Counted from the first letter of the stretch, positions 41,648 to 58,008 are shown. The stretch is DNA of 64,000 bases from Parcubacteria group bacterium (GCA_016180525.1 JACPBB010000001.1:75320-139319), one strand, 5' to 3'. Notes: generated from the letters alone by a model not told the origin. Made by a program: numbers and translations.

Positions 41648-41705
41648 GTCCCATACTAAGCTTTGCTCTAGTATCGGAGTCAGCGGCCACGCACCAAATT
41701 TTCCC

Positions 41706-41777
41706 TCCGCGGTAGCTCAGCGGTAGAGCGGCTCCCTGTTAAGGAGATGGTCGCAGGTTCGATCCCTGCCCGCGGAG
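41706..41777 (+). tRNA. tRNA-Asn (anticodon GTT)
   Basis: Cloverleaf read manually: acceptor TCCGCGG/CCGCGGA, D-arm GCTC-AGCGGTA-GAGC, anticodon loop CTGTTAA, T-arm GCAGG-TTCGATC-CCTGC, discriminator G; CCA not encoded. Confidence 0.8.
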
Positions 41778-41835
41778 GAAAGATCTGGTGTGGAGTGTAA
41801 AGAACGTCGTGGCTCCCCGCCTAGAAAGTTTGAAA

Positions 41836-41855
41836 AAATCACACCACAAATTTTA
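41836..41855. repeat. Left copy of perfect 20-bp direct repeat AAATCACACCACAAATTTTA (right copy at 48946-48965)
   Basis: seen directly; flanks a ~7.1 kb accessory block next to tRNA-Asn. Confidence 0.7.
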
Positions 41856-41863
41856 GCGCGTAA

Positions 41864-44638
41864 TTGTACCTGTCCCCATTTTTAAATTTGGCAGAGAAAT
41901 TCGTAAAAATATCATTAAAGGTACAATTAGAGACAAGAGGCAAAATTAGAACCAAAAAATATTGCATGATTTATTGCAACATAGAAGATCTAAGAAACGA
42001 AAGCGACGTAGAGCAAAAGCTCTGCGTTCCTCTTATTACGACTTCTTCAGAAAAAGGTTTAGGCTACTCAAAAAGTGATTATAGTTCAAAAAAGACTCTT
42101 AAAAAAATGGTCATTGGCAAAAGCGGGGACAAAAAATCTTATCGCCCAGATTTCATTACATTTATTCAAGGAACGCCAGTATTGGTAATTGAAGCAAAAA
42201 GCCCAGAGGAAGACCTGACAGAGGGATATAGAGAAGCGAGATTGTATGCGAACGAGTTAAATGCCATATACCCCTCCGGAATAAATCCATGTACGAAGGT
42301 TCTGGTGACAAATGGTAAAGAAATTTGGTACGGCAAAAATGATGAAAGAGAAGTCTTCGGTAAATTAACTTTTAAAGATATCAACATTTCCAACAAGAAA
42401 TTTACTGATCTGTTAGATTTTTGCAGCAAAAGTAAGATTAATAATGAATTAGAGACTGTTATAAAAAAAACGCGCAGTAAAAAAAATTTTAGTAAACCAA
42501 CTGCAATACTTGGAGGAAAAGCGAGTAGGGAGGAGGAACTTGGAAGCAATACTTTTGGTTCTGCTTTAATGTATGAATATCAGAGAATATTCAACCCTGA
42601 AACAAGAGAAGACAGGGTAGAAATTGTCAGAAATGCTTATATACCTTCTACGGGAATTGAAAAACACAAGAGCCCAATTCGAAAGCTAATTCTCGCTACG
42701 CTGCCACCCAGCTTAAAAAACACAACGAAAATCGAAAATACATCAAAACCACGAGAACTTTTGAGCAAGCTCCTGTCCCCCCAAAGGCTATCCAATCAGC
42801 TAATTTTATTAATTGGTAATGTTGGATCAGGAAAAACTACCTTTATTGATTATTTGAGAGAAATCGTATTGCCCACAGAGATAAAAAATAAGACAACGTG
42901 GGTATATATTGATTTAAACTTCGCACCCAACACGAAAGATGAAATTTATCCCTGGGTCCAAGAAAAAATAGTTGCTCAATTGAAAGATACACACCAAGAA
43001 CTTAACCTCGATCACATTGATGAATTGAAAAAGCTATATGCTGGTGATATAGAAGCATTTGAAATTGGTGAAGGAAGTTTACTAAGAGATGACCCAAAAG
43101 AATATAATAAATTGCTTGCCAAACTGATCCAAGAAGCAAAGGCAGACAAAAATAAAACCGCTAAAGCATACACAAGATATTTATGCGGCGATAGAGGAAA
43201 AACATTTATACTCATACTTGATAATGGAGATAAGAGAAACAAAGAAGATCAACTGCTGATGTTCGAAGTGGCCAGATGGGCAAAAGAAGAGTTTCGAGCT
43301 TTAATATTTTTGTCACTACGAGATGTCACATACGATTTACACAAAACGGAGCCTCCTCTTGATACTGTTATCAAGGATATGGCCTTTAGAATTGATCCAC
43401 CAGAATTAAGCCAAGTACTTTACAGAAGAGTCGCATACGCAATTCAGAACTCACCGTCAAGGGGAATCAAAATGACCTTAAATAATATGGTTGTGAATAT
43501 CTCAAAAAAAGAACAAGACATGTATTTAAAATGTATTCTAGAATCGCTTTATAATTCAAGTCCGTTCTCAAGAAAATTGATAAATGGGCTGGCTGGAAGG
43601 GATCTGCGAAGAGGGATAGAGATATTTATAACGTTTTGTAGAAGTGGACATATTTCTAATAAAGAAATATTGAAAATGCGTGTCTCAAATGGTTCCCACC
43701 CCCTTGAAGAACACATCGTCTTGAGGGCTTTGTTAAGGGGTAGTAAGCGATTTTATTCAGGGAGAGACTCTTATATTAAAAACTTATTTGAAAGCTACCC
43801 GGACGAAGAAGTAATCCCCGATCCATTTGTGAGGATGTCAATATTGAAATGGTTTCAAGAAAAAAAAGCGATCCGAGGTCCTAGTGATGCTAAGGGCTTC
43901 CATCCTATCGCTGATCTAGAAACAGATCTCCAATTGATTGGACATAATGAGAAAAGAGTACGAAGTGAAGTAGTAAACTTGCTAAGAGAGCGCTGCCTCA
44001 TAAGTGAAGCGCAAACAGAAGAAATTCTTGCGGAGACAGATCCAAAAGAAATAGAAAAAGGAATTGAGGATAATGATCTGATAAAAATAGCGCCCGCTGG
44101 CACAATTCACTTAGACCTGCTTCTGAATATTGTTTATTTGTCTGCCTGTGCCGAGGATATTTGGTATTGGAGCCATCAGACGGCAACAACTATAAAGGAA
44201 CGACTAACAAGAGAACAGGGGGTTGGACATTATTCGTTATCGACCAACTTAAAAAATTCATCGGACCTAATTGATTATTTAATTGATTATCAAAAAAAAT
44301 ACTACCCCAACAATGAGACTATCATTGACAAAGACATTCCACGCATAGACCTACAAACAATTAAAAAATTTGTCTCTGAGAGAGAACTAAAGGTACAAAA
44401 CAAGAACTCTGACTTGAAGAGGCGTTACCCTTTTAATAAAGAGCTTGTATGTTCTATTGAGAGGATTATCCTCAGGGCTGGAATCAGAGTACTCGTAGAG
44501 CCGGGCGTCTACGGCTTCATCATGAAAAGAGACATAAGGCAAGCAGAAAGTTTCCAGCAAGGTAAAAAAGTCAAAGTGCGAGTCAATGGTCTAGATGAAG
44601 ATCGTAGTACGCTTATTTTAAGTCTAATAGAAAAATGA
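41864..44638 (+). CDS. Large hypothetical protein: N-terminal PD-(D/E)xK nuclease (HsdR-N/Mrr-like) motif fused to a P-loop NTPase
   Basis: YRPDFITFIQGTPVLVIEAK (PD...ExK); LLIGNVGSGKTTFIDYL Walker A; FILILDNGD Walker B; ~500 aa further of unknown function. Confidence 0.6.
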   Translation: MYLSPFLNLAEKFVKISLKVQLETRGKIRTKKYCMIYCNIEDLRNESDVEQKLCVPLITTSSEKGLGYSKSDYSSKKTLKKMVIGKSGDKKSYRPDFITFIQGTPVLVIEAKSPEEDLTEGYREARLYANELNAIYPSGINPCTKVLVTNGKEIWYGKNDEREVFGKLTFKDINISNKKFTDLLDFCSKSKINNELETVIKKTRSKKNFSKPTAILGGKASREEELGSNTFGSALMYEYQRIFNPETREDRVEIVRNAYIPSTGIEKHKSPIRKLILATLPPSLKNTTKIENTSKPRELLSKLLSPQRLSNQLILLIGNVGSGKTTFIDYLREIVLPTEIKNKTTWVYIDLNFAPNTKDEIYPWVQEKIVAQLKDTHQELNLDHIDELKKLYAGDIEAFEIGEGSLLRDDPKEYNKLLAKLIQEAKADKNKTAKAYTRYLCGDRGKTFILILDNGDKRNKEDQLLMFEVARWAKEEFRALIFLSLRDVTYDLHKTEPPLDTVIKDMAFRIDPPELSQVLYRRVAYAIQNSPSRGIKMTLNNMVVNISKKEQDMYLKCILESLYNSSPFSRKLINGLAGRDLRRGIEIFITFCRSGHISNKEILKMRVSNGSHPLEEHIVLRALLRGSKRFYSGRDSYIKNLFESYPDEEVIPDPFVRMSILKWFQEKKAIRGPSDAKGFHPIADLETDLQLIGHNEKRVRSEVVNLLRERCLISEAQTEEILAETDPKEIEKGIEDNDLIKIAPAGTIHLDLLLNIVYLSACAEDIWYWSHQTATTIKERLTREQGVGHYSLSTNLKNSSDLIDYLIDYQKKYYPNNETIIDKDIPRIDLQTIKKFVSERELKVQNKNSDLKRRYPFNKELVCSIERIILRAGIRVLVEPGVYGFIMKRDIRQAESFQQGKKVKVRVNGLDEDRSTLILSLIEK

Positions 44639-44889
44639 GGGGTTTAGAAAGGTTTCATAGGTGACTCCGAATGAACTAAGATTATTAATTGTCTAACTTG
44701 CTCCAGCGACACGCTCGGATAAGAAAACACCCCCTCCCACCTTGTCGTCCGTAGCGTGTCCAGCCACGCGAGTACTTTTTTGAGCCTTGATTTTCAATGC
44801 TCTTTTTTGATACTCCAAGTTGGACATCAGAACTTTTCTTGGTTATATTTCCCATAGAAAGATTTTATTACAAAAAAGGGGTGGTATCA

Positions 44890-45512
44890 TGAACAACCTG
44901 CGACTACAAGGAAAGATTGTCGTTGTCGCTTACTCTGGAGGGCCTGATGCAACAGCACTTACACATCGCTTGAAAATGTCTGGGGCGGTGGTTCATCCGT
45001 TCTACATTAATTACCGCAAACAACACAATCACCCTAAGACTCTTAACGACTTAAGGGCGGCAAATGCATCTGCAGAAATCCTCGGTATCCAGAAAGTCGA
45101 AACAGTTCGAGCCCCACTTGGAGAACGAAGCAAGGGTGAGCGTAATGGGTTCTTCGTTGAAGTTCTCTCACCCATTGCGAGAGAACTTGGAAGTTCCCAC
45201 ATTGGACTTGGCACCATATGGGATGGAACAGACGATGATTTGAGTGTTGAATCCTTGTCTCTTCGTGGCTGTGAGCACAACTGTGAAGTAGTCACGTGGG
45301 ATAGTTTCGGTATACACGAAAAGGCAGATCAGTTTCTGGGGGTAGACACTAAGACGCGCGAAGCGCTGTTTCAGACCACATCATGCCAACGGTGGTGGAT
45401 ATGGAAAACCGAGTGTGGTGGATGCTACAGCTGCAAGGCACGTCACGGAGCTTTTCTCAAGGCCTTTGGGTACGACCCCACGGTTTATTACAAAGCTGTA
45501 TCCTCACTATAA
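44890..45512 (+). CDS. QueC-like PP-loop ATP pyrophosphatase (7-cyano-7-deazaguanine synthase family) paralogue
   Basis: VVVAYSGGPDAT PP-loop (SGGxD), C-terminal CGGCYSCKAR zinc motif as in QueC; AAGGGGTGG RBS before ATG 44890. Confidence 0.55.
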
Positions 45513-45601
45513 TTCTTTTCTCAAAAGTCGCTTCATTATTGAGTGACTTTTTTGTTACGTAAATCCAAGTAATTGTAAATCCCGTTCAACATTTACCCAA
45601 T

Positions 45602-45661
45602 CAAAAGTTCTCCGCCTCGCTCTTACTCGTCGAGACGGGTGAACTCGTCCACAATGGGGAG
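45602..45661. repeat. Copy 1 of ~60-bp direct repeat CAAAAGTTCTCCGCCTCGCTCTTACTCGTC(G/A)AGACGG...CTCGTCCACAATG(G/T)GGAG (copy 2 at 46089-46148)
   Basis: seen directly, ~90% identical. Confidence 0.65.
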
Positions 45662-45733
45662 TAACATTGACAAAGTAATAGTATTGTGCTATTTTTTGTA
45701 CAGTTTTCAAAATAATTAGAGAGGAAAAAATTA

Positions 45734-45937
45734 ATGCACACGCGTGATACATCGAGATTCACGTTCCATTTTAATTCAGATTTCAGTGGCAATATCGTCT
45801 GCATCAATAAGGAAACAGGAGCAGAGATGCAAATTCCCGCAGAGGAAATCTTGCAACTGGTAGCCTACCATTATCTAGCTGCAAAAAAAATTGAAAAACT
45901 CGAACAAGCAAGTATTGAAGAACTTCTACTAGCATGA
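45734..45937 (+). CDS. Small hypothetical protein (67 aa)
   Basis: promoter-like TTGACA and AGAGAGG RBS upstream, two terminator hairpins downstream. Confidence 0.4.
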   Translation: MHTRDTSRFTFHFNSDFSGNIVCINKETGAEMQIPAEEILQLVAYHYLAAKKIEKLEQASIEELLLA

Positions 45938-46088
45938 GTTTGTAATATTTTTATAACCAACCGCCCAAGGAAAACCGTCCTTGCGGCGGTTTTTTACATA
46001 AACCCTGCCTGCCAGTAGGCAGGCAGCCCCCCTATTTCAATTTTAATTTGTTTCCACCCCGCCTTGCCTGATGCAAGTCGAGGCAGGT

Positions 46089-46148
46089 CAAAAGTTCTCC
46101 GCCTCGCTCTTACTCGTCAAGACGGATAAACTCGTCCACAATGTGGAG
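46089..46148. repeat. Copy 2 of the ~60-bp direct repeat, upstream of TspO gene
   Basis: seen directly. Confidence 0.65.
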
Positions 46149-46244
46149 CAAGCAATTTTTCAATTGTGTTTGCAGTAGAGCGCATTTCACATCTGATACA
46201 CTTTTGTTATGTATCTGAAGCGTGCTTTTTGGTAAAATTGGGTT

Positions 46245-46751
46245 ATGAGACTTCCTCCTTCGTTAAAACTTCGGCGGACAAGCAATAATTTTTTCAGATT
46301 GGTTATTGCGATTGCGGTGTCAGAAGCGGCCGGAATTATCGGGTCAGTTTTCACCGTCTCGGCCATTCCGACTTGGTATGCCGGACTTGTGAAGCCGGCG
46401 CTCAATCCTCCGAGCTGGGTTTTCGGGCCTGTTTGGACGATACTCTATGCGCTGATGGGCATTGCGGCGTTTTGGGTGTGGCGTATGGGTTGGGAACGGA
46501 AAGAGATAAAAATGGCGCTTGGAGTGTTTGGCATCCAGCTTTTCTTAAATGCCATCTGGTCAATCATTTTCTTTGGTCTGCATAGCTCCACCTGGGCCCT
46601 CGTGGATATCATTCTGCTGTGGTTTGCAATCGTTTGGACAATGGTTGTTTTCTATAAAATTTCAAAGCCGGCAGCATATTTACTTATTCCATATCTTCTC
46701 TGGGTTAGTTTTGCTTCGTATCTTAATTATTCTATTTGGTTATTAAACTAA
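46245..46751 (+). CDS. tspO: TspO/MBR family tryptophan-rich sensory protein
   Basis: five TM helices, W/Y-rich conserved pattern (PSWVFGPVWTILYALMG...). Confidence 0.8.
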   Translation: MRLPPSLKLRRTSNNFFRLVIAIAVSEAAGIIGSVFTVSAIPTWYAGLVKPALNPPSWVFGPVWTILYALMGIAAFWVWRMGWERKEIKMALGVFGIQLFLNAIWSIIFFGLHSSTWALVDIILLWFAIVWTMVVFYKISKPAAYLLIPYLLWVSFASYLNYSIWLLN

Positions 46752-46755
46752 CTAC

Positions 46756-47268
46756 ATGAGAAAAAAGACAGTAAAAGTAAGTGACAAGATCCAGAAAAAC
46801 TATCAATATGAGCTTACCGAACCGGCTGGCAGGAATTTTCATGCTAGTTTTAAGCCCGAGCTCACTCCCAAACAAATGCTTACCTTGGGCGTTTTCGGCG
46901 GCAAGTACATGACCGACTGCAAAAAAGAATTTCCCAAGGGCTGGTTTACGCGCGCCAAACTTTCGCCCGAGCATCACGACGATACGCTGAATTATTTTCA
47001 TAAACACGCGAGCCAACCGCTTAAGGTGTGGGTTAAAAAGGGATGGATCAATAAAAAGCATGATCCAAGAGGATGGTTTCAGTGGTATTGCCGTTACTAC
47101 ATGGGCCGGCGACTTCCCGGCGAAGACGAACGGCAGATCAAACGCTGGAAAGCCATTCGGCGGCACATTGCGCAGGTCAAAAAGAATTGCAGAAAGAGAG
47201 ATTTAACCTGCCGTCCGACGCAAAGACAGGCGGTACTTCACTGGGCCTACGACAGCCGGAAAATATAA
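46756..47268 (+). CDS. Hypothetical protein (170 aa), basic, W-rich
   Basis: ORF 4 bp after tspO stop; no assignable motif. Confidence 0.5.
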   Translation: MRKKTVKVSDKIQKNYQYELTEPAGRNFHASFKPELTPKQMLTLGVFGGKYMTDCKKEFPKGWFTRAKLSPEHHDDTLNYFHKHASQPLKVWVKKGWINKKHDPRGWFQWYCRYYMGRRLPGEDERQIKRWKAIRRHIAQVKKNCRKRDLTCRPTQRQAVLHWAYDSRKI

Positions 47269-47405
47269 CTCGCACAATTTGCTTAATTAAGCAAACCTGC
47301 CCGCCGGCAGACAAGACTGGATCACAATTGAGGGCCGAGGAGTGAAAGAAGTGCAAGACAGGCGACGAAATCCTTTTTCCCTTCATAGTAACTCGCTGTT
47401 CCCGC

Positions 47406-47438
47406 AAAAAACTCCCATTGTCGGGAGTTTTTTGTTTT
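47406..47438. terminator. Intrinsic terminator AACTCCC-attgtc-GGGAGTT + T-run
   Basis: seen directly. Confidence 0.6.
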
Positions 47439-47506
47439 CTTCTTGAAAAATAAAGACGGGGATGTTACTTTATTTCCAGAGTCATTGGAAATAAGGAGGG
47501 CTCAAT

Positions 47507-48049
47507 ATGCGTAAGGGCAGAGGGCTCGTAGATGTTGATATTTATAATGAATTATTGAAAGTTCCCGGAGCGCGCAAATTGTTACTTGATAACACAACAA
47601 ACCACAGAACAAATCCGAAGACGAATAAGGTGTGCGCTGAAATTCATGAGGACGCTTGGCCAGAAGTGAAAGAAATGGTCGCCAATTGGAAACGCTTCAA
47701 GAAAGGACAGCCGCAGCAAACGCATACAAAAATAGCGCCAAAGAAAGGGACTGCTGTTAAAAAAGAATCGGCTATTGACCCGAAACAGCAAGAGTGTATT
47801 CGGAGACTAAGAAAGCTGAAGCCAGGAGATAAGTTTGCATACAAAAATGTTGGCTATGGCCTCACGAGCTACGAAGATGGCAGTGACGCCATTGAAATCA
47901 AAAAAGGGAAACTATTCACCGAGACCTTCGATAGCATGGGCATGGAATGGACGGGAGCCACTTGGAAGTTTGACGGCGGACTTGGCTTAGTAACCTATAT
48001 CGTTCTTATGGAAGATGTGCCCGAGGGGCAACTCGCGGATCAAGGTTAA
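47507..48049 (+). CDS. Hypothetical protein (180 aa)
   Basis: AAGGAGGG RBS, terminator at 48060-48084. Confidence 0.5.
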   Translation: MRKGRGLVDVDIYNELLKVPGARKLLLDNTTNHRTNPKTNKVCAEIHEDAWPEVKEMVANWKRFKKGQPQQTHTKIAPKKGTAVKKESAIDPKQQECIRRLRKLKPGDKFAYKNVGYGLTSYEDGSDAIEIKKGKLFTETFDSMGMEWTGATWKFDGGLGLVTYIVLMEDVPEGQLADQG

Positions 48050-48385
48050 CACATCACATACCCGGCTCTTGTAGTCGGGTTTTTATCGCACAGATCGCTC
48101 AAGCGGGATTAATCTGGACAAAGCTCTGGCACCTGCGATAAACTCTCGCCACCTCAGTAGTAGAGCGCTACGCGCTCACTACGGGGCAGGCACGAGCATA
48201 CCCGCCTTCACACGAGGTTACGGCAGGTAGGCAGCTCGTAACACGGGGTTACTTCTGGTCAGTGGTGCCAACGAGTTTTGGTTTTATTTTTACCGAAAGT
48301 GTTGCTGCGGGCGAAATACGAACCCAGTGCATTGACCAAGGCAATAGATTACTCTAAGCTAATTTCAGCTTTTAAAGTTCCTTGA

Positions 48386-48805
48386 TTGGGGTGGGATATG
48401 AGAGTTGGCCTGATTGCTTGTTCAAAAACCAAACGAGTTGGCAGGTATAAGGCGAGAGAATTGTATTGTTCTCCTTTATTTCGTTTTGCGTGGCAATACA
48501 CAAGTCAGCATTTTGATAGGGTGTTTATCCTTTCTGCTAAATATGGTCTACTTGACCCAGAAAGACGCGTCTGCGACTACGACACTACGTTGAATACTAT
48601 GACAATTGATGCGCGGAAACGATGGTCTGTACAAGTAGCGAAACAAATTCTGCAAAAAACAAACACAAGTGACGAGCTTCACCTCTTTTGCGGTAAAAAA
48701 TATAGAGAATTTGTTGTGGCATTGCTACGAGGGCAAAAATGTTTTTATCCTCTCCACGGTTTAGGTATCGGGCAGCAGCTGCAATGGTATAAAGAGAGAT
48801 TATAG
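48386..48805 (+). CDS. Hypothetical protein (139 aa; conserved-looking IACSKTK...ILSAKYGLL pattern)
   Basis: ORF only. Confidence 0.45.
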   Translation: MGWDMRVGLIACSKTKRVGRYKARELYCSPLFRFAWQYTSQHFDRVFILSAKYGLLDPERRVCDYDTTLNTMTIDARKRWSVQVAKQILQKTNTSDELHLFCGKKYREFVVALLRGQKCFYPLHGLGIGQQLQWYKERL

Positions 48806-48945
48806 GCCGCCGACATAATTAATCGGCGGTTTTCATTTTACAATCGCAAGCAACGAGTTAGTCTGTTGCAACGAAACGTTAGGGCGCGGAAACATCTCCT
48901 CCCGTTTTATCTTCCATAACATGTCCAAGCCCCACGCGAGCCAAC

Positions 48946-48965
48946 AAATCACACCACAAATTTTA
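48946..48965. repeat. Right copy of the 20-bp direct repeat AAATCACACCACAAATTTTA
   Basis: seen directly. Confidence 0.7.
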
Positions 48966-49047
48966 TTAAAAAAATGTACTTATCCCTATTTCTATTTCCC
49001 GATTCCCCAAGTAAGTAGTTTAAAAAAACCAGCCTTTTCCAAAGTCT

Positions 49048-50583
49048 TTATTGTAATTTATCCAGGCTAAGCAGCATATTCCACGTTTTTCCCTTGTCGC
49101 TTGATTTCCAGATGCGCGCTAGATCTGAATTTATGTAGATGACATTCGGATCAATCGGGTCAAAGACGATGTTTGCAACACGATGGTCATTGGTAATACC
49201 GTTCGGAAGTTTTCCTACGGCATTCCACGTTCTACCGCCGTTGGTACTCTCAAAAATGTCATTTGGCTGGGCATATAGATTGACTCCGATCAGTTTCGTG
49301 CCGGTTTCATCATGCGGATTGTAACGCGCGAAGTTGACCATCATATTATCCGGTTCAAGGAGACTGCCATCGATTGAGTAATAAATTTTATCCATATTAT
49401 CCTTGCTGGCCATAATATAAAAACGGTTTAAATCCACCGCTGAGACATCAAGATGCCTTATGCCAAGGTCAAGCGTAGCACCAAGTTTCGTCCAGCTCTC
49501 TCCGGCATCATTAGTTTCCAAAAACCCCCATTGTTCGTCTGTAGATTTTTTGTCGACATTGGTGCCGCTTGGCAACCCAAACGTGGCCAACCTCAACCTC
49601 TTCGGATCCCGGACATCAATGAAAATTCCAGGCACTCTTAAATCTGGAAACAGTCCGGTCGAAAGCTCTTTCCATGTTTTGCCATTATCCACCGTTTTGT
49701 AGACAATACCTTTCGTTACAAAAGTCTTGCCCTTATCGGGGCCATCCATGCCTTGAGGCAAAGCCGATGTCGTGACATACACTATGTTCGTATCCGTTGG
49801 ATTCATGACCGCACTTTCCGTATAGGCACTCATCTCGCTCGTGAAAAGTTGGTGCCAGGTGGCACCGCCGTCCAAACTTTCAGAAAGCCCCCCAAGTCCT
49901 TCTCCCACTTTTCCTGGAGCACTGCCGCCCGGAGCCAACAGGCGCTGTGGATTTGAAGGATCTATATACAGGTGGAAACGAAGTTCATAACAAGGCTTTG
50001 ATGGATCATCGTTTCGAGGCAAGCCCTTAAGTCCCTTCCCCGAAAAACTCCACGTATTGCCGCCGTCAACACTTTTATATAGACCCTTATACTCTACATT
50101 GATATACATTTCCTTGTTGTTTTTTGGATTAACCACAAACGCCTGTTCAGTTCTGTAGTTATCAAAACCCAACCTTGGATAGCAGTTCACCGGATGTCCT
50201 TGGACAACATCGCTCTCAGCCACTGTTCTTGGTTTACTAGGAAAAGATATTTTCTGAAGCGTTGTTGCCGGCTTAGATTTTCCGAGATCTGTCTCGGATA
50301 CATTTTCTTGGCCGGATTTTGGCATGTCTGCGCGTGGTATTGCCTCTTCAATATTTTGCATACTACGAGCGGAGCTCTGCGGCTCATTTATGATTTCTTC
50401 CGGCCCTTCTCGTTCTGATTGTGTTGAAAAATAAAAATGACTGCCCAGTCCGGCTGCCACGATGACAGCTACAATTCCAATAATGAAAATATGAGTGAAT
50501 CCCCTTTCGGTTTTCATGTTTTTTATTGTATCAAAACTTTTATGACACTCAAAAACTAGGAGAATTCGGAGAGAGTGCTGCAA
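49048..50583 (-). CDS. Exported BNR/Asp-box repeat protein (sialidase/Sortilin-like beta-propeller)
   Basis: N-terminal TM/signal; at least six SxDxGxTW repeats (SVDGGNTW, SLDGGATW, TVDNGKTW, TNDAGESW, STNGGRTW, SSDKGKTW). Confidence 0.7.
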   Translation of the reverse strand: MQHSLRILLVFECHKSFDTIKNMKTERGFTHIFIIGIVAVIVAAGLGSHFYFSTQSEREGPEEIINEPQSSARSMQNIEEAIPRADMPKSGQENVSETDLGKSKPATTLQKISFPSKPRTVAESDVVQGHPVNCYPRLGFDNYRTEQAFVVNPKNNKEMYINVEYKGLYKSVDGGNTWSFSGKGLKGLPRNDDPSKPCYELRFHLYIDPSNPQRLLAPGGSAPGKVGEGLGGLSESLDGGATWHQLFTSEMSAYTESAVMNPTDTNIVYVTTSALPQGMDGPDKGKTFVTKGIVYKTVDNGKTWKELSTGLFPDLRVPGIFIDVRDPKRLRLATFGLPSGTNVDKKSTDEQWGFLETNDAGESWTKLGATLDLGIRHLDVSAVDLNRFYIMASKDNMDKIYYSIDGSLLEPDNMMVNFARYNPHDETGTKLIGVNLYAQPNDIFESTNGGRTWNAVGKLPNGITNDHRVANIVFDPIDPNVIYINSDLARIWKSSDKGKTWNMLLSLDKLQ

Positions 50584-50784
50584 AGGCCAGAGAAAAAAAT
50601 TCGTTCAGCAAAACTTTAACCGGAAACACCTCTTCCTGCCTTGTCATTCATGGCATATCCAGCTACGCACGCTTGATATTAAGGCTAAATTTTTTTCAAC
50701 ATATTGTAAATCTCTTGTCTATACCAAAAAATATTTACCCCCACACCTGTTTTCTTTTTCTCCTCAAATCGTTATTATATCTAG

Positions 50785-51039
50785 ATGTTTTATGTGTATA
50801 TTTTAAAAAGCAAACAGGATCATAGGTTATATGTGGGTTCAACCAATAATTTAAAGCGTAGATTTGCTGAGCATAACAAAAATCTGGTATACTCAACAAA
50901 ATCCCGCGCTCCATTTGAGTTGCGTTATTATGAAGCATATCACTCTGAAAAAGATGCTAGATATCGTGAACGCTCATTAAAGAAAGGCGGCAATGCGCTT
51001 GCGCAACTCAAACGAAGAATTGTAAAAAGTATATTCTAA
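50785..51039 (+). CDS. GIY-YIG nuclease superfamily protein (stand-alone)
   Basis: FYVYILKS...RLYVGST.NL..R..EHN motif, 84 aa. Confidence 0.8.
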   Translation: MFYVYILKSKQDHRLYVGSTNNLKRRFAEHNKNLVYSTKSRAPFELRYYEAYHSEKDARYRERSLKKGGNALAQLKRRIVKSIF

Positions 51040-51100
51040 AGAAAATAGGTGTGGGGGTTTACGTTTAAACATAAATCGTCTACAATACAGAGTTATAAGT

Positions 51101-51601
51101 ATGACAATCGCAAAAGTATATTTAATCGGATCATTAAGAAACCCTGAAGTCCCGCAGATAGCAAATAAAATACGGGAGCTCGGGTTTGAAGTTTTTGATG
51201 ACTGGCACGCCGCCGGACCGGAAGCGGATGATAAGTGGAGAGATTATGAAAAATCAAGAGGCCGCACGTATAAAGAGGCACTTGATGGGTTGGCGGCAAA
51301 CCATGTATATCATTTTGACTTAAAACATCTGGATGAATCCCATATCACCATTTTGCATTTACCCGCGGGAAAATCGGGCCATCTTGAACTTGGGTACGCA
51401 ATCGGAAAAGGCAAGAAGGGCTACATTCTCCTTGATAGCGCCGAGCGATGGGATGTGATGTACAAGTTTGCTCATGGAGTATTCCATAATTTTGATGAAC
51501 TGTTGGAAGAATTAAATCGGATAAAAAGCGAATTTGTACAACCTGAAAAAATAAATAATGAGTCCGGTATTCATCAGGACGATTATTCACTTCAATTTTA
51601 A
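51101..51601 (+). CDS. Nucleoside 2-deoxyribosyltransferase-like protein
   Basis: KVYLIGSL...AGKSGHLELGYAIGKGK pattern typical of the NDT/flavodoxin-like fold. Confidence 0.65.
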   Translation: MTIAKVYLIGSLRNPEVPQIANKIRELGFEVFDDWHAAGPEADDKWRDYEKSRGRTYKEALDGLAANHVYHFDLKHLDESHITILHLPAGKSGHLELGYAIGKGKKGYILLDSAERWDVMYKFAHGVFHNFDELLEELNRIKSEFVQPEKINNESGIHQDDYSLQF

Positions 51602-51690
51602 CTTGTCTCAACTCCCCACTCTGATAAACATCGGAGCGGGGGTTTATTTTATATCTGAAATGCGCAAGGCGCTAATAATTTGAGATTTTT

Positions 51691-53532
51691 TTAGCCAATT
51701 GCAACTCCGTGATATGTTGAAATGCCGGATATTTGCATCATTGCGGGTGTATATCCTCGTTTGGGACGTATGGCAGAACCCGAAAGCGGCACAGAGGTAT
51801 CCGGAACAAATATGGAAGGGTGAGAAAGAGGGTCTGGTGCGAATTCCTGTTTAAATAAGTCACCGCGTTTCGTTGCCTTAATCCAGTGCTCTTCAATTTT
51901 GGTACCAAGCGGCGTTGATGGGTGACCGGTTGTAGTTGCACCTTGTTCACTTGGGGCCACAAAAAAAGGAATATATACGCCTTGTTTTGCCATTTCTCGC
52001 GCAAACTCTTCCGCAAAATCACTTTGATAGCACGCGTTAGAAAGTATGACATCATCTTCCGGTTTTTTAACTCCATCACGATATCGGCTCGCAAAAGCTT
52101 CCGCGAGTTTTTTAGGTGAAAGGTACCTGCTTGTGTTCAATGTTACAACATTGCCTCCACCCAAATCCTGACCCCCATCACGAAAATAAATACCGTCTGG
52201 GGAGCCGTGCGCAAAAATATACAATATCATTTCCGCTGGAGCGTCAATAATCGCTTTTGTGGCAACCGTTTCAGGGTCAGACTCATCACCACTCACATGT
52301 ACAAAGGAACCCCCCTCACGCGCAACACGCTCTTTAATCGCATTGAGTTTTTCGGGAGTTGCAAATAATGGCACCCCCTTCTTTTTTTCGTTGTGTGTAA
52401 GAACTACCGCGTTTTTAGGGATTAGTTTATTCATGTTTTTGCCCCGCTCCTCTTCAATCGCAAAAGATGCTCGTTTGATTCCATTTTCATCCAATGACTC
52501 ATTTCTATTAAAAAGATACTGCATAACGTGTGCGGCTCTGTGCATGAGCTGTATGGGGTTGACCCCGTATTTTATTTGCGTTTCGTGAAGCATTGCAAGG
52601 CTAGCTTCTTGTTTCTTTTTGTTAAATCCTTCAAAAGCTACTCTCATTAATTGTTCTCGCCATTGTGTAAATTCAGTATCACCAAAAAGCGTTGAAGATT
52701 TTTTTAAATATTTAGCAATCAGCATAAGAGTGGGATCATCAATGGTCTCAAAGGCTAGATTAGAGGCTATATTCTCCATTACCTCAAGTTGTTTTATATG
52801 CTGCAAAGACAGCAAAGTAAGAAATAGCTGCCGCGGGCGCGGTGGCAATGCCTCACGAATTTTTTTCTTATCAGGTTCAGAAATAAGTTCAGAAGAAAGA
52901 ATAACATCTATTTCATTGTAATGCGTGCTACCTTGTTTGCGTATATTTTCAAGAAGAATATCGGCCGCTCCTGGCACTTTGTTATATTTTTCATAATAAG
53001 ATACGGCAACGGCATATCGGGATAGTGCCCTTCGCACTAAGTCAGGGGCATTTGGAGTCGCGGAAAAAGAATTTGCGTTTATAATAAAATAAAAAGGAGA
53101 TCTTTCCGCGAGTTTTTTAATAACCTCTTGATCACGGCCCGGAGATTGCCAACTGCTATAATGCTCCAACAGTACCTGCGCTATACGTTCTCCTGTTTTT
53201 GTATTTGGAAATTCTATAGCTATCCGTTTTGCAAACGTAAATTTTTCATCCTTTGCAAGCCCCGTAAAAATTTTTTCAGCTTTTTCAAGAAACGCGGATT
53301 CAGATTTGTAATCATATGTGTCACTGAGTTTTGTAAGTAACAATTCCGTATATGATTTATTGACCGCTTCAGCGGGGACCCTTGTTTCGTAGACTGCACG
53401 AGGATGAGTGGTAGTATCGAGCGCATTTGCTTCCAGTGCTTGAGATGCGGGTGCCGTGGCAAGAAATGCCGCTACCACCTTAGCTGTTTTAGCGGCTTTT
53501 GTCGGTTTAAAATTTCGTTCCCCTTCTTTCAT
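51691..53532 (-). CDS. Secreted hypothetical protein with C-terminal caspase-like (clan CD) His/Cys dyad
   Basis: signal-like N-terminus; ...YIFAHGSPDG... then ~55 aa later ...VILSNACYQS... in hydrophobic-strand contexts typical of caspase/CHAT folds. Confidence 0.45.
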   Translation of the reverse strand: MKEGERNFKPTKAAKTAKVVAAFLATAPASQALEANALDTTTHPRAVYETRVPAEAVNKSYTELLLTKLSDTYDYKSESAFLEKAEKIFTGLAKDEKFTFAKRIAIEFPNTKTGERIAQVLLEHYSSWQSPGRDQEVIKKLAERSPFYFIINANSFSATPNAPDLVRRALSRYAVAVSYYEKYNKVPGAADILLENIRKQGSTHYNEIDVILSSELISEPDKKKIREALPPRPRQLFLTLLSLQHIKQLEVMENIASNLAFETIDDPTLMLIAKYLKKSSTLFGDTEFTQWREQLMRVAFEGFNKKKQEASLAMLHETQIKYGVNPIQLMHRAAHVMQYLFNRNESLDENGIKRASFAIEEERGKNMNKLIPKNAVVLTHNEKKKGVPLFATPEKLNAIKERVAREGGSFVHVSGDESDPETVATKAIIDAPAEMILYIFAHGSPDGIYFRDGGQDLGGGNVVTLNTSRYLSPKKLAEAFASRYRDGVKKPEDDVILSNACYQSDFAEEFAREMAKQGVYIPFFVAPSEQGATTTGHPSTPLGTKIEEHWIKATKRGDLFKQEFAPDPLSHPSIFVPDTSVPLSGSAIRPKRGYTPAMMQISGISTYHGVAIG

Positions 53533-53608
53533 AAGCCTATTTTAACACATCTGAGATAGTTTGACTTATAGCTAAAAATGTATTAATTTTCAAAGAGCGT
53601 TTCCGGTT

Positions 53609-54196
53609 TTGAGGAGGAGACTTTTGACTAAGATTCTTTCCCTTGCTCTGCATAGAGTGATACGCCGCGTCGGAGTCAATATCCTCGTCTGTGTAGTACT
53701 TTTGAATATGGCGCTCGGGTGGGTGCTTGACCGCCTGCACGAAGCAACTCACGCGCTCATACAAGCGCTTGGTCTCAAGCACCTTGAGGATTGGCTCCGC
53801 AGACAACCTTTGTGGTTTCCCGTGATGCTTATGGTGTGTATGGTAGTAGGTTATGTCGCCTTTAACATATACGAGCTCGCTCTCTTGCTTAACAAACAGA
53901 TCATCTTGGCGCTCGTGCTCAGTACAATCTTTAAGGTCGTGTATCTGGGGATCTTTAACTATCTGATGCACATCTATTCGGAACAATTCCTGGGAATCTG
54001 GTGGATCAGAAAATTGTATGAGCGGTATCAGGCGATACGGGCCTTTGTGCTCAATTATATTAAGCAACAGCCGTGGTACACGCGCGCGGTTATCATTAAA
54101 AATATGATTAAAGACCGCGCGAAAGAATTTTTGAAAACTTCGCCGATGTTCGCTCTCGCAAAACGATTATTGCGACGCAAATCAAGTGAGGTATAA
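53609..54196 (+). CDS. Hypothetical membrane protein (TTG start at 53609 or 53624 after GAGGAGGAG RBS)
   Basis: hydrophobic helices, terminator 54202-54232; preferred over the overlapping minus-strand ORF. Confidence 0.45.
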   Translation: MRRRLLTKILSLALHRVIRRVGVNILVCVVLLNMALGWVLDRLHEATHALIQALGLKHLEDWLRRQPLWFPVMLMVCMVVGYVAFNIYELALLLNKQIILALVLSTIFKVVYLGIFNYLMHIYSEQFLGIWWIRKLYERYQAIRAFVLNYIKQQPWYTRAVIIKNMIKDRAKEFLKTSPMFALAKRLLRRKSSEV

Positions 54197-54201
54197 CACA
54201 A

Positions 54202-54232
54202 GAAGCGGCCCTCCAGCCGCTTTTTTATTTTT
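54202..54232. terminator. Intrinsic terminator AAGCGGC-cctcca-GCCGCTT + T-run
   Basis: seen directly. Confidence 0.65.
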
Positions 54233-54298
54233 CTTGACACATGCACTAATATGTGATAATTTTTGCACAGTTTGTCATCGCAAAGAAGCGAGAGGTAA

Positions 54299-54865
54299 AT
54301 GAGTATTGCATCCACAGTTTACAACGCCGTACGTGACGCGATAGCTCTTTTTTTTGAGCCGCTCAGCATTGAAGACACGCCACGCTTGCAGAGAAATACT
54401 CCCAAAGTAAAGTCTCTTGTATCCGGTTTTTTAATTACCATAGAGCGGAAAAAAGGGTGTGTGCTTAAGAGTCGTCCTAAGGACTCTCCTGAGGAAACTC
54501 CTTATACAGATTCCGGAGTAGATGAATATTTTGAGGTTACGGTCACATTTGATCCAAAACAGAATGCCCAGTTTCCAAATGCAAAGGGTCCGTGGAAATT
54601 TTTACTCACCAACAGTATGAATAAAAACAGCGGCTATGGTTTTTCCGGGCGCGTTCACTACCAACCGCGTGGAGACAAATTCAAAATAATCGAAGTTGCG
54701 GAGGCATATGAAGATTACCGTCATGCCGATATCATAGGAGGTGGTAGACCTTCACCCGAGATGGTTGTATGGGTGCGAATCCATGTACAACAAGCAAACG
54801 GTACAACAACATACTCTGGAAACGGAATTGCCTGCCGACCCTGTTCTTCAGAAACTGGTATATAA
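54299..54865 (+). CDS. Hypothetical protein (188 aa)
   Basis: AGAGG RBS; terminator at 54876-54905. Confidence 0.5.
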   Translation: MSIASTVYNAVRDAIALFFEPLSIEDTPRLQRNTPKVKSLVSGFLITIERKKGCVLKSRPKDSPEETPYTDSGVDEYFEVTVTFDPKQNAQFPNAKGPWKFLLTNSMNKNSGYGFSGRVHYQPRGDKFKIIEVAEAYEDYRHADIIGGGRPSPEMVVWVRIHVQQANGTTTYSGNGIACRPCSSETGI

Positions 54866-54936
54866 TAATTTTTCTCGCCATCCCTTGGGGTGGCTTTTTT
54901 GTTTTTATAAAATAAAAAAATGAGTATACTTTTATT

Positions 54937-55281
54937 ATGGAAGAGCAGTGTTCTGTATGCAAAATAATACCAAAAGTTCTCGGCAAAAAATTTTTCTTTC
55001 ATCTTTTTGGGCACGAGTATCCAAAACTTTTCTCCAAAGATGTTGCAAAACATCTTATCGGTCTTAATTTAAAACTCGTCGGCGGACTCTCAACGCGCGG
55101 GTGGACCGTGCATGATGTTGACGTAACTGGAGAGAAAAAGGACGCCGCCGTTTTAGAAGAACGTCTGCGCAAGGACAACATCCCCCATCCTATCCATCTC
55201 TGTAGACAAAAACCAAACCACTCCCACTTTCTCTGCGCGTTAAACGGCATAAAACTCGTCCTCACCGGAAGGGGGTATTAA
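54937..55281 (+). CDS. Minimal nucleotidyltransferase (Pol-beta-like NTase fold) protein with N-terminal CxxC
   Basis: LVGGLSTRGWTVHDVDV fits the hG[GS]x9-13Dh[DE]h NTase signature. Confidence 0.5.
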   Translation: MEEQCSVCKIIPKVLGKKFFFHLFGHEYPKLFSKDVAKHLIGLNLKLVGGLSTRGWTVHDVDVTGEKKDAAVLEERLRKDNIPHPIHLCRQKPNHSHFLCALNGIKLVLTGRGY

Positions 55282-55290
55282 AAATTGACA
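55251..55290. repeat. Copy 1 of ~40-bp module AAAACTC(G/A)TCCTCACCGGAAGGGGGTATTAAAAA(A)TTGAC(A/G) (copy 2 at 57004-57044); contains a -35-like TTGACA
   Basis: seen directly. Confidence 0.6.
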
Positions 55291-55350
55291 ATTTTATTTC
55301 AATACAATAAGATTTATTTCAGTTTGCGGTCAACAAAAAGAGAGGTAGAA

Positions 55351-55923
55351 ATGCTATACGAAGACTATATGGTAGTTGCCTGTGGCATGCGCGAGAGTAA
55401 GGAACGATCAACATATTTTTGCGAACTAGTGGGAAACAGTGGATTTGGAGGCAGGAATCATAAAATTAACTTTAGTTTGATAATCAAAGGATGCGTAGGA
55501 GAGAAAGAATACCGTGCCAAATATGATGCTGTTATGCCGCACATTAAAGTAGGAGATCTGCTACATTGTGAGTTTGTTTGGCAGTGGCACGGTGATTTTC
55601 TCAATTTATGCCTGTCTGGGTTTATTCAGGTAAAACCATGCCGATTAGGATCAATCCAAAATGTTTCCGCTGAAGATTTTCTTAACCCTGATAGGGGCTA
55701 CTGGGTAAGAACAAAAGTCGTCGGAAAATGGGTCCACTTTCCCGGAGTCATTCACTGTGGCGGTAATGCGTTTATTCCCCTAAACTTGAGGAGTGGGTAT
55801 CCTCAGTTAGTAGATTCAGGTTATTCAGAATCAGCACAAGGCGCCCTCGTGTGGAAGCCAAAACCGAAACGACTGGTACGAAACATCGTGAGGGAATTCT
55901 TCAAACCACTCTTTCAAGAATAA
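55351..55923 (+). CDS. Hypothetical protein (Cys/His/Trp-rich; six-frame ORF starts 55285)
   Basis: ORF with terminator 55932-55955. Confidence 0.45.
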   Translation: MLYEDYMVVACGMRESKERSTYFCELVGNSGFGGRNHKINFSLIIKGCVGEKEYRAKYDAVMPHIKVGDLLHCEFVWQWHGDFLNLCLSGFIQVKPCRLGSIQNVSAEDFLNPDRGYWVRTKVVGKWVHFPGVIHCGGNAFIPLNLRSGYPQLVDSGYSESAQGALVWKPKPKRLVRNIVREFFKPLFQE

Positions 55924-56025
55924 TTTGAGTTAGCCGACAGATAGTCGGCTTTTTCTTTTTTAGAAAACTTGACATTTTTATTGTGGTAATGTAATATTTA
56001 TTTCGGACAAAAAGGAGGTTTCCGA

Positions 56026-56493
56026 ATGGCTACAACTAAGTACCCGCCCATTTCTCCCGGAACACTTGTGAAGACAACGCAGCCAAATTTGAATTTAAGA
56101 CATCAGTGGACAGATGAAGGGTGGGCAAGTAAGAAGTCGTGGGTTCAAGGAAAGGTCATCACCCACCACGATTCTCATGGCCTTTGCTATGATGTAGAGC
56201 ACGAGGACGGAACGGTGGGCTGCTATGATCCATCAGAGATTGAAGCGGTTCGAGAGACACCCGATCTCGCAAGAGAGGAGAGGCGGAGAGAAGCAGAGAT
56301 GGTTCTCCATCATGATGATTCTCCCTGTACCGCGCGCTTGAACAAAAATGGATACTGCCCTGAATGTAAATTTGTTCCGGATATGCAGAGTACGTGTTTT
56401 TATTATTACTGTCCCGCATGCAATATTCCATTACCCTCAAAAAGCATGACTTGCACCCAGTGTAACCATACCTTCGCGAAGCCCGGTAAATAG
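56026..56493 (+). CDS. Hypothetical protein with C-terminal double zinc-ribbon
   Basis: AAAGGAGG RBS; CPECK...CPAC...CTQC cysteine pairs; terminator 56482-56510. Confidence 0.5.
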   Translation: MATTKYPPISPGTLVKTTQPNLNLRHQWTDEGWASKKSWVQGKVITHHDSHGLCYDVEHEDGTVGCYDPSEIEAVRETPDLAREERRREAEMVLHHDDSPCTARLNKNGYCPECKFVPDMQSTCFYYYCPACNIPLPSKSMTCTQCNHTFAKPGK

Positions 56494-56588
56494 CCGGGTT
56501 TTTCTTTTTTACATTTACTAGATATTATATTTGAGTTGTGATATGTTGGTAGCAGATAAAATCAGCCTCTGTAAGTGAGAAAGCCGAG

Positions 56589-56951
56589 ATGAAAACACCG
56601 CGCATCAGCTTTAACATTCGGATTGACGATAAAGGCTCCTTTTCCGGAAAGCAAATAATGAATGCCGTACGCAAAGTAGCGGGAGACGCTTACCACGAAG
56701 TTCTTGTAGAGGTCAAAGATGACAGAATGTTTTATGAGATAGGACATAATTCACCAAGTCCGGAAAGCGATTGCGTTGTTTCCGCCGATGGTGGCAATAT
56801 ATGTCCCCAAGAAAGATATAGTGAGGTAATAACAATACAATCTCATAAACATGAGGGAGAAAAGTTTGCGGTTAATGTGCCCCTTGAAACAGCCGTGAAA
56901 AGACTTCGTGATTTAAGCAAACAAGTTGCATCCATTCTGTTAAAAAAGTAA
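56589..56951 (+). CDS. Hypothetical protein (120 aa)
   Basis: ORF with terminator 56958-56982. Confidence 0.45.
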   Translation: MKTPRISFNIRIDDKGSFSGKQIMNAVRKVAGDAYHEVLVEVKDDRMFYEIGHNSPSPESDCVVSADGGNICPQERYSEVITIQSHKHEGEKFAVNVPLETAVKRLRDLSKQVASILLKK

Positions 56952-57003
56952 ATGTGAAATCCGCTTGAAAGCGGATTTTTTATATCTTATTCACAAAAAT
57001 TTA

Positions 57004-57044
57004 AAACTCATCCTCACCGGAAGGGGGTATTAAAAAATTGACGT
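57004..57044. repeat. Copy 2 of the ~40-bp promoter-proximal module
   Basis: seen directly. Confidence 0.6.
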
Positions 57045-57099
57045 TTTTGTCTTCCTGTGTTATTTTTAAAACAGAGGTTCGGTCAATGAGAGGTGCGGC

Positions 57100-57897
57100 G
57101 TGAAAGAACTTTTTGTACTCGGAGCACATGATCCGGAGATGGTCCGCATTATTGCCCTTTTAGAGGGTGCGGGAAAAAATTTTATCTATGCAAAAAAAGA
57201 CGGAGAGCGAGTCCGCTCCGGTACTGCATATGAAGCAAATAATAAAGATGAAATACCCGATACTGTCCGAGTGATTTTTGTTGAGTGTGAAGTGGCCGGC
57301 GTAATGCCATCATTTCGTATTGATCACCACCGCCCCGGAGATCCCGGATATGACAAGCGACCGGAAGAATATTTGCTTGGATCATCTCTCGGACAATTGT
57401 GTGCGTATCTTGAGAGAACACCCACCGAGGAAGATACAGTAATTGCGGCTATGGATCATTGCTTTCACGCCGCAGTAAAAGGCCTGTGCCCCGGAGTTTC
57501 TCCGTCCGCTGTGCTTAAAATGAAAATTGAAAAAATCGCAGAGGGGTACAATTGTTCCACCAAAGAGGTTGAAAAAGAGATAAGGCGATTTCAAGAAATA
57601 ATCAGCACTTCCGAAACCATCCTCATAGGTGATCAATCTGTGCATGATGTCATTGGATCTTTAGGAGTTGGCTACACATTACAATTGCTTACAGCCTTAA
57701 CGGCAGCAACAATAGAGAGAAAGGCGGTATTACTCCATGCCTTTGACACGAAGGGTGGCCCCGAAAAATTAATTTTAGGCGGCGATGTGCATGAGAAAAC
57801 GGTACGTTATTTTATGCAAATATGGGCACCTGCTAATAGTCTTGAAAAAATTTTTGGAACGCCGAGCAGAGGATATGCCGGAGGATATCGAAAATAA
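57100..57897 (+). CDS. Hypothetical protein (265 aa; GTG start; contains IDHHRPGDPGY)
   Basis: ORF with terminator 57904-57927. Confidence 0.45.
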   Translation: MKELFVLGAHDPEMVRIIALLEGAGKNFIYAKKDGERVRSGTAYEANNKDEIPDTVRVIFVECEVAGVMPSFRIDHHRPGDPGYDKRPEEYLLGSSLGQLCAYLERTPTEEDTVIAAMDHCFHAAVKGLCPGVSPSAVLKMKIEKIAEGYNCSTKEVEKEIRRFQEIISTSETILIGDQSVHDVIGSLGVGYTLQLLTALTAATIERKAVLLHAFDTKGGPEKLILGGDVHEKTVRYFMQIWAPANSLEKIFGTPSRGYAGGYRK

Positions 57898-58008
57898 ATG
57901 TAGACTGCTGTAAGGCAGTCTTTTTTAATTAGAAACAAACTCCTTTATGTAGTATGCCCAGTTACATTTGACAAAACGGTATATTATGGGAACCTGTCCG
58001 AAGACAGT

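Follow-up and report, generated by a model that had tools for sequence, protein, structure and literature searches.

Do six small genes that lie in a row on a bacterial chromosome make up a single system? The question is raised by a gene string at positions 54299-57897, on the plus strand, of the 64,000-nucleotide (nt) stretch of DNA analysed here (the window), which comes from a metagenome-assembled genome of a Parcubacteria group bacterium belonging to the candidate phyla radiation (CPR). The string encodes proteins of 188, 114, 190, 155, 120 and 265 amino acids (aa), and an initial annotation had singled out the 114-aa protein as a minimal nucleotidyltransferase (NTase) and pointed to a repeated module of about 40 bp upstream of two of the genes. 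Our analysis establishes the anatomy of the string, the conservation of its proteins, the fold that the 265-aa protein adopts and the fact that conserved neighbours are lacking. On balance, the region is probably a patch that varies between strains and carries six separate genes, most of them monocistronic, and not one system, and its reading as a defence or signalling island is not supported.

Gene neighbourhoods in relatives

Linkage was judged from gene neighbourhoods at 33 loci for the 114-aa family and 44 loci for the 265-aa family, the present window being counted in each. Outside this genome the two families were never found together at any of the 33 + 44 loci, and across all of them (about 77) the only pairing among the six families to be seen again is that of the 188-aa gene followed by the 114-aa gene, in one relative (locus L087). 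The 114-aa gene is solitary at its 33 loci, standing among unrelated, mostly housekeeping genes (PBP, CysS, CarB, GyrA, RecG, EF-Ts). All-against-all clustering of the open reading frames (ORFs) within ±3 kb revealed no neighbour that recurs at more than four of the 33, and the few that do recur reflect local synteny among close relatives. The 265-aa gene likewise has no recurrent neighbour at its 44 loci bar antisense shadow ORFs, and neither CorA nor cas genes are found beside it. In relatives, then, the genes are scattered and not co-localised, the outcome that the initial annotation had itself named as telling against its view.

Gene order differs between this window and two close relatives. 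In the window a membrane protein gene is followed by the 188-, 114-, 190-, 155- and 120-aa genes, by a relic described below and by the 265-aa gene. At L087 different genes precede the 188-aa and 114-aa genes, whilst at L021 the order is membrane protein, a 186-aa zinc-ribbon protein and then the 114-aa gene.

Anatomy of the gene string

All six ORFs proposed by the initial annotation were confirmed, boundaries included. The genes for the 114-aa and 265-aa proteins both lie on a 344,533-bp contig, and NCBI identifiers for all six are given with the features of the string below.

54299..54865, plus strand: 188-aa ORF (HYT93_00695), with Shine-Dalgarno sequence GAGAGG and TTGACA upstream at 54234-54239
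54877..54894, plus strand: terminator-like hairpin 3' of the 188-aa ORF, 7 pairs (5 GC), then a T-run
54937..55281, plus strand: 114-aa ORF (HYT93_00700), nucleotidyltransferase-like mini-protein, with neither a Shine-Dalgarno sequence nor its own terminator
55250..55290, plus strand: repeat copy A: final 10 codons of the 114-aa gene with its stop, then an A-tract and TTGACA, the -35 for the 190-aa gene
55285..55313, plus strand: promoter-like site of the 190-aa ORF, TTGACA-17-TAAGAT, 10/12 consensus positions
55351..55923, plus strand: 190-aa ORF (HYT93_00705), 7 Cys
55932..55950, plus strand: terminator-like hairpin 3' of the 190-aa ORF
55969..55997, plus strand: promoter-like site of the 155-aa ORF, TTGACA-17-TAATAT
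56026..56493, plus strand: 155-aa ORF (HYT93_00710), C-terminal 8-Cys double zinc ribbon and an N-terminal domain with no family match
56478..56502, plus strand: terminator-like hairpin overlapping the stop of the 155-aa ORF
56589..56951, plus strand: 120-aa ORF (HYT93_00715), weak Shine-Dalgarno sequence
56956..56979, plus strand: terminator-like hairpin 3' of the 120-aa ORF
57002..57043, plus strand: repeat copy B, a non-coding relic (in-frame reading ..LKLILTGRGY*), then an A-tract and TTGACG, the -35 for the 265-aa gene
57038..57066, plus strand: promoter-like site of the 265-aa ORF, TTGACG-17-TATTTT, preceded by TG
57100..57897, plus strand: 265-aa ORF (HYT93_00720), NrN-like DHH/DHHA1 phosphodiesterase, GTG start
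57902..57921, plus strand: terminator-like hairpin 3' of the 265-aa ORF

Strong plus-strand terminator-like hairpins follow five of the six ORFs (188-, 190-, 155-, 120- and 265-aa), and good Shine-Dalgarno sequences are present at four of the six starts. The initial annotation had credited every gene with its own ribosome-binding site and clean terminator; this stands for five ORFs, though the Shine-Dalgarno sequence of the 120-aa ORF is weak, and not for the 114-aa ORF, which has neither and whose 3' end folds no better than shuffled sequence. Terminator-like sites number 14 in the 5-kb region, against 5.3 ± 2.6 expected, and the rest of the window has 35-39 per 20 kb against about 20 expected. 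Because single-gene terminators are also enriched elsewhere in the window, the patch, whose organisation had been called unusual, is not unique: it is denser in terminators than its surroundings and not different in kind.

Transcription of the string would be driven from the promoter-like sites listed above, which were recognised by their match to consensus. Those of the 190-aa and 155-aa genes are 76% similar over 41 nt (55280-55320 and 55964-56004) and the terminators of the same two genes are 83% similar over 29 nt (55934-55962 and 56483-56511), whilst the ORFs themselves are unrelated. In addition, the upstream region (promoter and 5' untranslated region, UTR) of the zinc-ribbon gene at L021 resembles that of the 190-aa gene. 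At the start of the 114-aa gene, the sequence TATACT ends 6 nt before the ATG (window 54925-54939). With this spacing and no Shine-Dalgarno sequence, a leaderless or very short-leader mRNA is therefore possible. At L021 TATACT is kept, but about 15 nt from the ATG.

The 265-aa protein is closest to NrN

Homologues of the 265-aa protein fall into more than 100 clusters, none of which has a Pfam domain or an informative name, and the protein itself matches neither the DHH nor the DHHA1 model of Pfam; scans with PHROG and NCBIfam gave nothing significant for it, and as a single sequence it had no match in the PDB. An AlphaFold model of high confidence (predicted local distance difference test, pLDDT, 97.3; predicted template modelling score, pTM, 0.90) identifies it as a DHH phosphodiesterase of two domains, with NrN as its closest relative of solved structure, an identity that the initial annotation had missed. 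NrN is the SAM-AMP phosphodiesterase of CorA type III CRISPR (PMC10600005). When the model was compared with the PDB using Foldseek, ranks 1-4 were all NrN (E 5.7e-10 to 7e-9, template modelling score (TM) 0.58-0.65, 20-21% identity), with the next-best matches, to exopolyphosphatase, PggH and RecJ/Cdc45, being five orders of magnitude weaker. A profile of the 265-aa family matches NrN with E 0.0015, the D-x-E, DHH, S-L-x-Q and AA-x-D motifs being aligned (DLE, DHH and AAND in NrN); by position, the residue changed in the E21A crystal form of NrN falls within the D-x-E match, and that of D119A within the stretch matched by AA-x-D.

The conserved motifs of the family are D-P-E (residues 11-13), E62-C63, DHHRPGD (75-81), SSLGQ (95-99), DH (119-120), CPG (130-132) and RGYAG (257-261). 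Across 62 sequences D75-H76-H77, E62 and D119-H120 are invariant, and D11-P-E13 is at least 90% conserved. The family therefore resembles NrN in length, in two-domain fold (TM 0.62-0.65, E 5.7e-10) and in its DHH, D-x-E and AA-x-D motifs but differs from it in overall sequence (20-21% identity), in having its own invariant HRPGD, SSLGQ, CPG and RGYAG motifs, and in its distribution: at the 44 loci it lies away from CorA and cas genes, in CPR chromosomes, other bacteria and phage contigs. The nanoRNA and dinucleotide phosphodiesterases NrnA, GdpP and PggH share the DHH core and two-domain layout (PggH with E 1.6e-4 and TM about 0.45), but the family is much less similar to these than to NrN, and the DHHA1 GGGH motif is not evident, RGYAGG being found at the C-terminus instead. 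In PADLOC, the DHH_CorA model matches residues 1-34 only (E 1e-3).

The genomic contexts of the family are diverse and include pilin clusters, ribosomal genes and a prophage-like region with holin and amidase genes in a Ktedonobacteraceae genome (L047). Members also occur in 37 IMG/VR viral contigs (L050-L086), several with primase, tail or tail-fibre genes nearby, whilst tblastn against cultured phages (INPHARED) found no match to the 265-aa protein. On one metagenome contig (L049, 5074-6798) a 179-aa protein with a Pfam match to Gad2 (Gabija anti-defence 2) is encoded two genes upstream of the NrN-like gene. A Parcubacteria-like locus (L022) shows partial synteny with the window, with an amino-acid permease-Usp gene downstream of the 265-aa gene in both, and this shared neighbour suggests that here the 265-aa gene belongs to the conserved backbone. 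Acting as a stand-alone enzyme, the protein would be expected to hydrolyse small nucleotide phosphodiesters, for example nanoRNAs, dinucleotides or conjugates of nucleotides. A search of the available literature found no paper on stand-alone or phage NrN-like enzymes, nor on CPR mini-nucleotidyltransferases.

The 114-aa protein is probably nucleotidyltransferase-like

Residues 47-63 of the 114-aa protein do carry the NTase signature reported by the initial annotation, LVGGLSTRGWTVHDVDV, in the form VGG-x9-DVDV (V48-G49-G50-x9-D60-V-D62-V). The family is rare: HMMER detected 14 matches among 1.84 billion representative proteins. In these 14 homologues, which were found without use of the motif, D60 and D62 are invariant and G49 and G50 at least 90% conserved, bearing out the signature. 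Further loci were fetched with a degenerate DNA pattern built on the motif, giving homologues in nine GTDB genomes and about 22 metagenome contigs. The GTDB hosts are Kaiserbacteria, Paceibacterota, Azambacteria, three Saccharibacteria, an unclassified bacterium and a Nanoarchaeia archaeon. G49, G50, D60 and D62 are invariant in 32 locus-derived homologues, a set that is biased in that the motif was also the search pattern. Outside that pattern, C5, C8, G16, H87, H95 and H97 are found in every sequence covering those positions, C89 in 28 of 29 homologues and C100 in 23 of 29.

Evidence for the fold comes from an AlphaFold model built on a shallow alignment (mean pLDDT 76, with residues 30-90 above 90). 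The core is predicted to run helix, strand (45-48), GG, short helix, strand (61-65, with DxD), helix, strand (86-89). This is the order of strands and helices in the Pol-beta nucleotidyltransferase core, which supports an NTase-like assignment. No match to the PDB was significant in Foldseek (best E 0.45), the top 50 being mostly Pol mu, TdT or Pol X, the MNT antitoxin 8xeo and TM1012, all of them non-significant. TM1012, a putative nucleotidyltransferase that falls in the ANT(2'') family of Pfam (PF10706), is also the best PDB match of the family profile (E 0.12 over 90 residues, HDIDV aligned to HDIDI), and hhalign gives P 3.3e-4 and a probability of 38%. None of the 14 family members matched a Pfam NTase model at E up to 10, and searches with the single protein found nothing significant in Pfam, PHROG, PADLOC, NCBIfam or PDB sequences. 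The minimal NTase fold put forward earlier is supported by the conserved signature and by the order of the predicted core and not by any significant profile or fold match; we regard it as probable that the family is NTase-like.

Set beside the minimal NTases and the ANT(2'')/TM1012 family of the Pol-beta superfamily, the family has the characteristic hG[GS]-x9-13-Dh[DE]h pattern (as VGG-x9-DVDV), the predicted order of elements and a comparable size (about 110 aa), with TM1012 coming out best by both profile and structure, albeit below threshold. It differs in several respects. The predicted strand 86-89, where the third catalytic carboxylate is expected, reads (I/V)H(L/Y)C and has no conserved Asp or Glu, H87 (29/29) and C89 (28/29) occupying the strand instead; there is an N-terminal CxxC (C5, C8) and an HxH motif at 95-97, followed by C100. 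The family also lacks a HEPN or other partner and is confined to CPR bacteria and DPANN archaea. The CxxC, the His/Cys strand and HxH together suggest a putative site for zinc or another transition metal, and the protein may be a metal-binding, probably zinc-stapled, NTase-like enzyme that would act alone.

A second small family, of about 80-100 aa, was seen at L016 and L020 (Hadesarchaea), L035 and L043. It has the same KLVGGLxRRGWTxHDIDI core with a different C-terminal half, and no Pfam match.

The other four proteins

The 188-, 190-, 155- and 120-aa proteins gave nothing significant in Pfam, PHROG, PADLOC, NCBIfam or the PDB, the 155-aa protein having weak Pfam matches to Zn-ribbon and DZR. 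No relatives of the four were found in scans of viral contigs (a phage tblastn search with the 190-aa protein was also empty), nor, with two exceptions, in roughly 75 fetched related loci. One exception is L087, where a 188-aa gene adjoins the 114-aa gene as it does here, at about 82% nucleotide identity. The other is L021, where the 186-aa protein shares 60% identity at its C-terminus with residues 79-155 of the 155-aa protein, all eight Cys being kept; the 186-aa protein has a different N-terminus and is encoded immediately upstream of the 114-aa gene. On these searches the four genes appear to be lineage-restricted ORFans.

A repeat derived from the end of the 114-aa gene

The repeated module described by the initial annotation is real. 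Its two copies (module sequence CCTCACCGGAAGGGGGTATTAAAAA, with the GC-rich part CCTCACCGGAAGGGGG) occupy 55250-55290 and 57002-57043; a single substitution and one additional A (a 1-nt indel) set them apart, and 40 of 41 aligned positions are identical. They are not a product of chance: a 30-mer with at most three mismatches has two matches in the window against 0.00 expected from 100 shuffles. No third copy like it is present in the 64-kb window. Each copy ends, as reported, in a -35-like TTGAC(A/G) upstream of the ORFs that begin at 55351 and 57100, the distances to these starts being 60 nt and 56 nt respectively, and each has a different -10 (TAAGAT or TATTTT) at 17 nt. Similarity between the copies stops sharply at both edges. 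Together they bracket the 190-, 155- and 120-aa genes, with 1,752 bp from start to start.

Position alone would make this a promoter-proximal module, but copy A is mostly 114-aa coding sequence: its first 31 nt encode the ten C-terminal residues of the protein (IKLVLTGRGY) and lead into the stop, followed by AAAAA and TTGACA. Copy B is intergenic, beyond the 120-aa gene and its terminator; here an in-frame LKLILTGRGY-stop is followed by AAAAAA and TTGACG. Because a C-terminal KLxLTGxGY is conserved across the 114-aa family, copy A can be taken as the original, under coding constraint, and B as a copied fragment. Both strands of both copies fold like shuffled sequences (z -0.4 to +0.9), and on these scores a terminator or RNA element was ruled out. 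An Rfam scan of the window found tRNA only.

We interpret the repeat as the scar of a rearrangement that brackets three genes, the direction of which we infer. Single promoter-ORF-terminator units would have been gained, lost and shuffled by recombination, with a recent insertion or duplication-deletion involving the 114-aa gene producing the order seen in the window. Copy B would then be the relic of a second 114-aa copy, of which only the last 31 coding nt and the -35 are left before the 265-aa gene, and the rearrangement would have put the same -35 element before two different -10 regions. Local reshuffling, and not import, is suggested because the zinc-ribbon gene, terminator and promoter of the bracketed block have counterparts upstream of the 114-aa gene at L021. 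Of the two explanations offered earlier, modular duplication is the one favoured by the evidence, and co-regulation is not.

Strain variation around the string

Two further variable segments lie upstream of the string. Beside a tRNA-Asn gene (41705-41778), L087 matches the window on both sides of 41800-51050 at about 79-83% nucleotide identity and has about 1.4 kb in place of the window's roughly 9 kb. The 9-kb stretch encodes a 924-aa HSDR_N/AAA/S1 protein, a QueC-like protein, TspO and a BNR-repeat protein, and looks like a strain-specific island beside a tRNA gene. At 51600-54215, where the window has a 613-aa ORF and a 195-aa membrane protein, L087 carries 5.9 kb of different genes, among them those for a beta-propeller protein and a cation efflux protein, whilst the membrane protein is retained in L021. 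This makes a second variable slot, immediately before the gene string.

Three independent assemblies of the same population (L002-L004) all break 318 nt upstream of the 114-aa gene, inside the 188-aa gene, a common break that hints at strain heterogeneity at that point. A prophage or integrative element was rejected, as no phage or recombinase genes were found.

Alternative explanations

That the string is a nucleotide-signalling or defence island, in which the 114-aa protein makes a signal, the 265-aa protein degrades it and the Cys-rich and zinc-ribbon proteins sense it or act as effectors, is one alternative. In its favour, the GG...DxD mini-enzyme and the phosphodiesterase are encoded 1.8 kb apart, and the solved protein nearest to the latter breaks down SAM-AMP, a CRISPR signal; there are weak PADLOC matches to DHH_CorA (E 1e-3) and C3a116 (E 3.6e-3), and the 265-aa family occurs in phage contigs and, at one locus, two genes after a Gad2-domain protein. 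We consider such an island very unlikely, however. The two families never occur together elsewhere in the 33 + 44 loci and neither has a conserved neighbour; none of the proteins is significant in PADLOC-DB v2, where the defence-system membership raised by the initial annotation yielded best E values of 1e-3 (a partial match) and 3.6e-3 with no partners nearby; no CorA, Cas10 or effector-like domain was found; and each gene comes with a separate promoter-like site, five of them also with a terminator. It is similarly a long shot that the 265-aa family is a widespread stand-alone eraser of SAM-AMP-like or nucleotide-conjugate signals, employed by CPR bacteria and serving anti-defence in phages, that is paired here with a 114-aa writer of an undescribed small-molecule signal. 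As for the 114-aa protein being the MNT half of a toxin-antitoxin pair of the MNT-HEPN type, its small size and GG...DxD motif would fit, and the MNT antitoxin 8xeo is among its top structural matches, though not significantly so. The HEPN partner that the initial annotation had proposed looking for was not found: the flanking 188-aa and 190-aa proteins have neither the Rx4-6H motif nor any Pfam match, to HEPN included, the gene is alone among housekeeping genes with no recurrent partner at 33 loci, and MNT proteins do not share its additional invariant Cys/His set. We find this pairing scarcely credible.

The repeat invites two other explanations. It might be a maintained cis-regulatory element (an activator or UP site with a -35) that co-regulates the 190-aa and 265-aa genes, as the near-identity of the copies across the non-coding A-tract and -35, their like spacing to the downstream gene (60 and 56 nt), the occurrence of CGGTCAA at the same offset in both 5' UTRs and the resemblance among the promoters of the patch would allow. 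We judge this unlikely, since the 64 kb contain just two copies, coding constraint on a conserved C-terminus accounts for three quarters of copy A, TTGAC is missing after the stop of the 81%-identical 114-aa homologue at L021, the module lacks both RNA and DNA structure and no regulator is encoded nearby. Alternatively, the copies could be the attL and attR of a small integrated element carrying the 190-, 155- and 120-aa genes: they are direct repeats bracketing a three-gene block of 1.75 kb, and one overlaps the 3' end of a gene, as in many integrative elements. No integrase, recombinase or transposase match was found in or near the block, however, and the counterparts that its zinc-ribbon gene, promoter and terminator have at L021, ahead of the 114-aa gene, point to local reshuffling, making an integrated element highly improbable.

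Several points also weigh against our preferred account of a patch of separate genes marked by a rearrangement scar. The contigs of L021 and L087 stop inside the 114-aa gene or about 100 nt past it, so the downstream junction in near relatives, and with it the history of the repeat, lies outside view. Beyond the well-conserved part of the repeat, the two 5' UTRs also have CGGTCAA in common (55328-55334 and 57080-57086), 42-43 nt downstream of the -35, which could be a sign of regulation instead of a scar alone. For the 114-aa family, the conservation of the motif at pattern-fetched loci is partly circular and the NTase fold is sub-threshold (no Pfam match in 14 members, Foldseek E 0.45, hhalign 38%), whilst the ORFan status of the other four proteins is based on family libraries, the PDB, viral scans and local tblastn.

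Implications

Taken as a variable patch of unrelated single-gene units, the locus should not be counted as a defence or toxin-antitoxin system. The repeat within it would offer an example of the 3' end of a gene, together with an abutting -35, being copied in a rearrangement and then driving a different gene. The 114-aa family, with its length of about 110 aa, its NTase core and its Cys/His set but no Pfam model, is a candidate lineage-specific enzyme of ultra-small symbiotic cells. Finally, the 265-aa protein represents a sizeable unannotated NrN-like family that is found outside CRISPR loci and also in phages, and it bears both on the origin of the enzymes that degrade SAM-AMP and on whether phages carry anti-signalling enzymes of the phosphodiesterase type.

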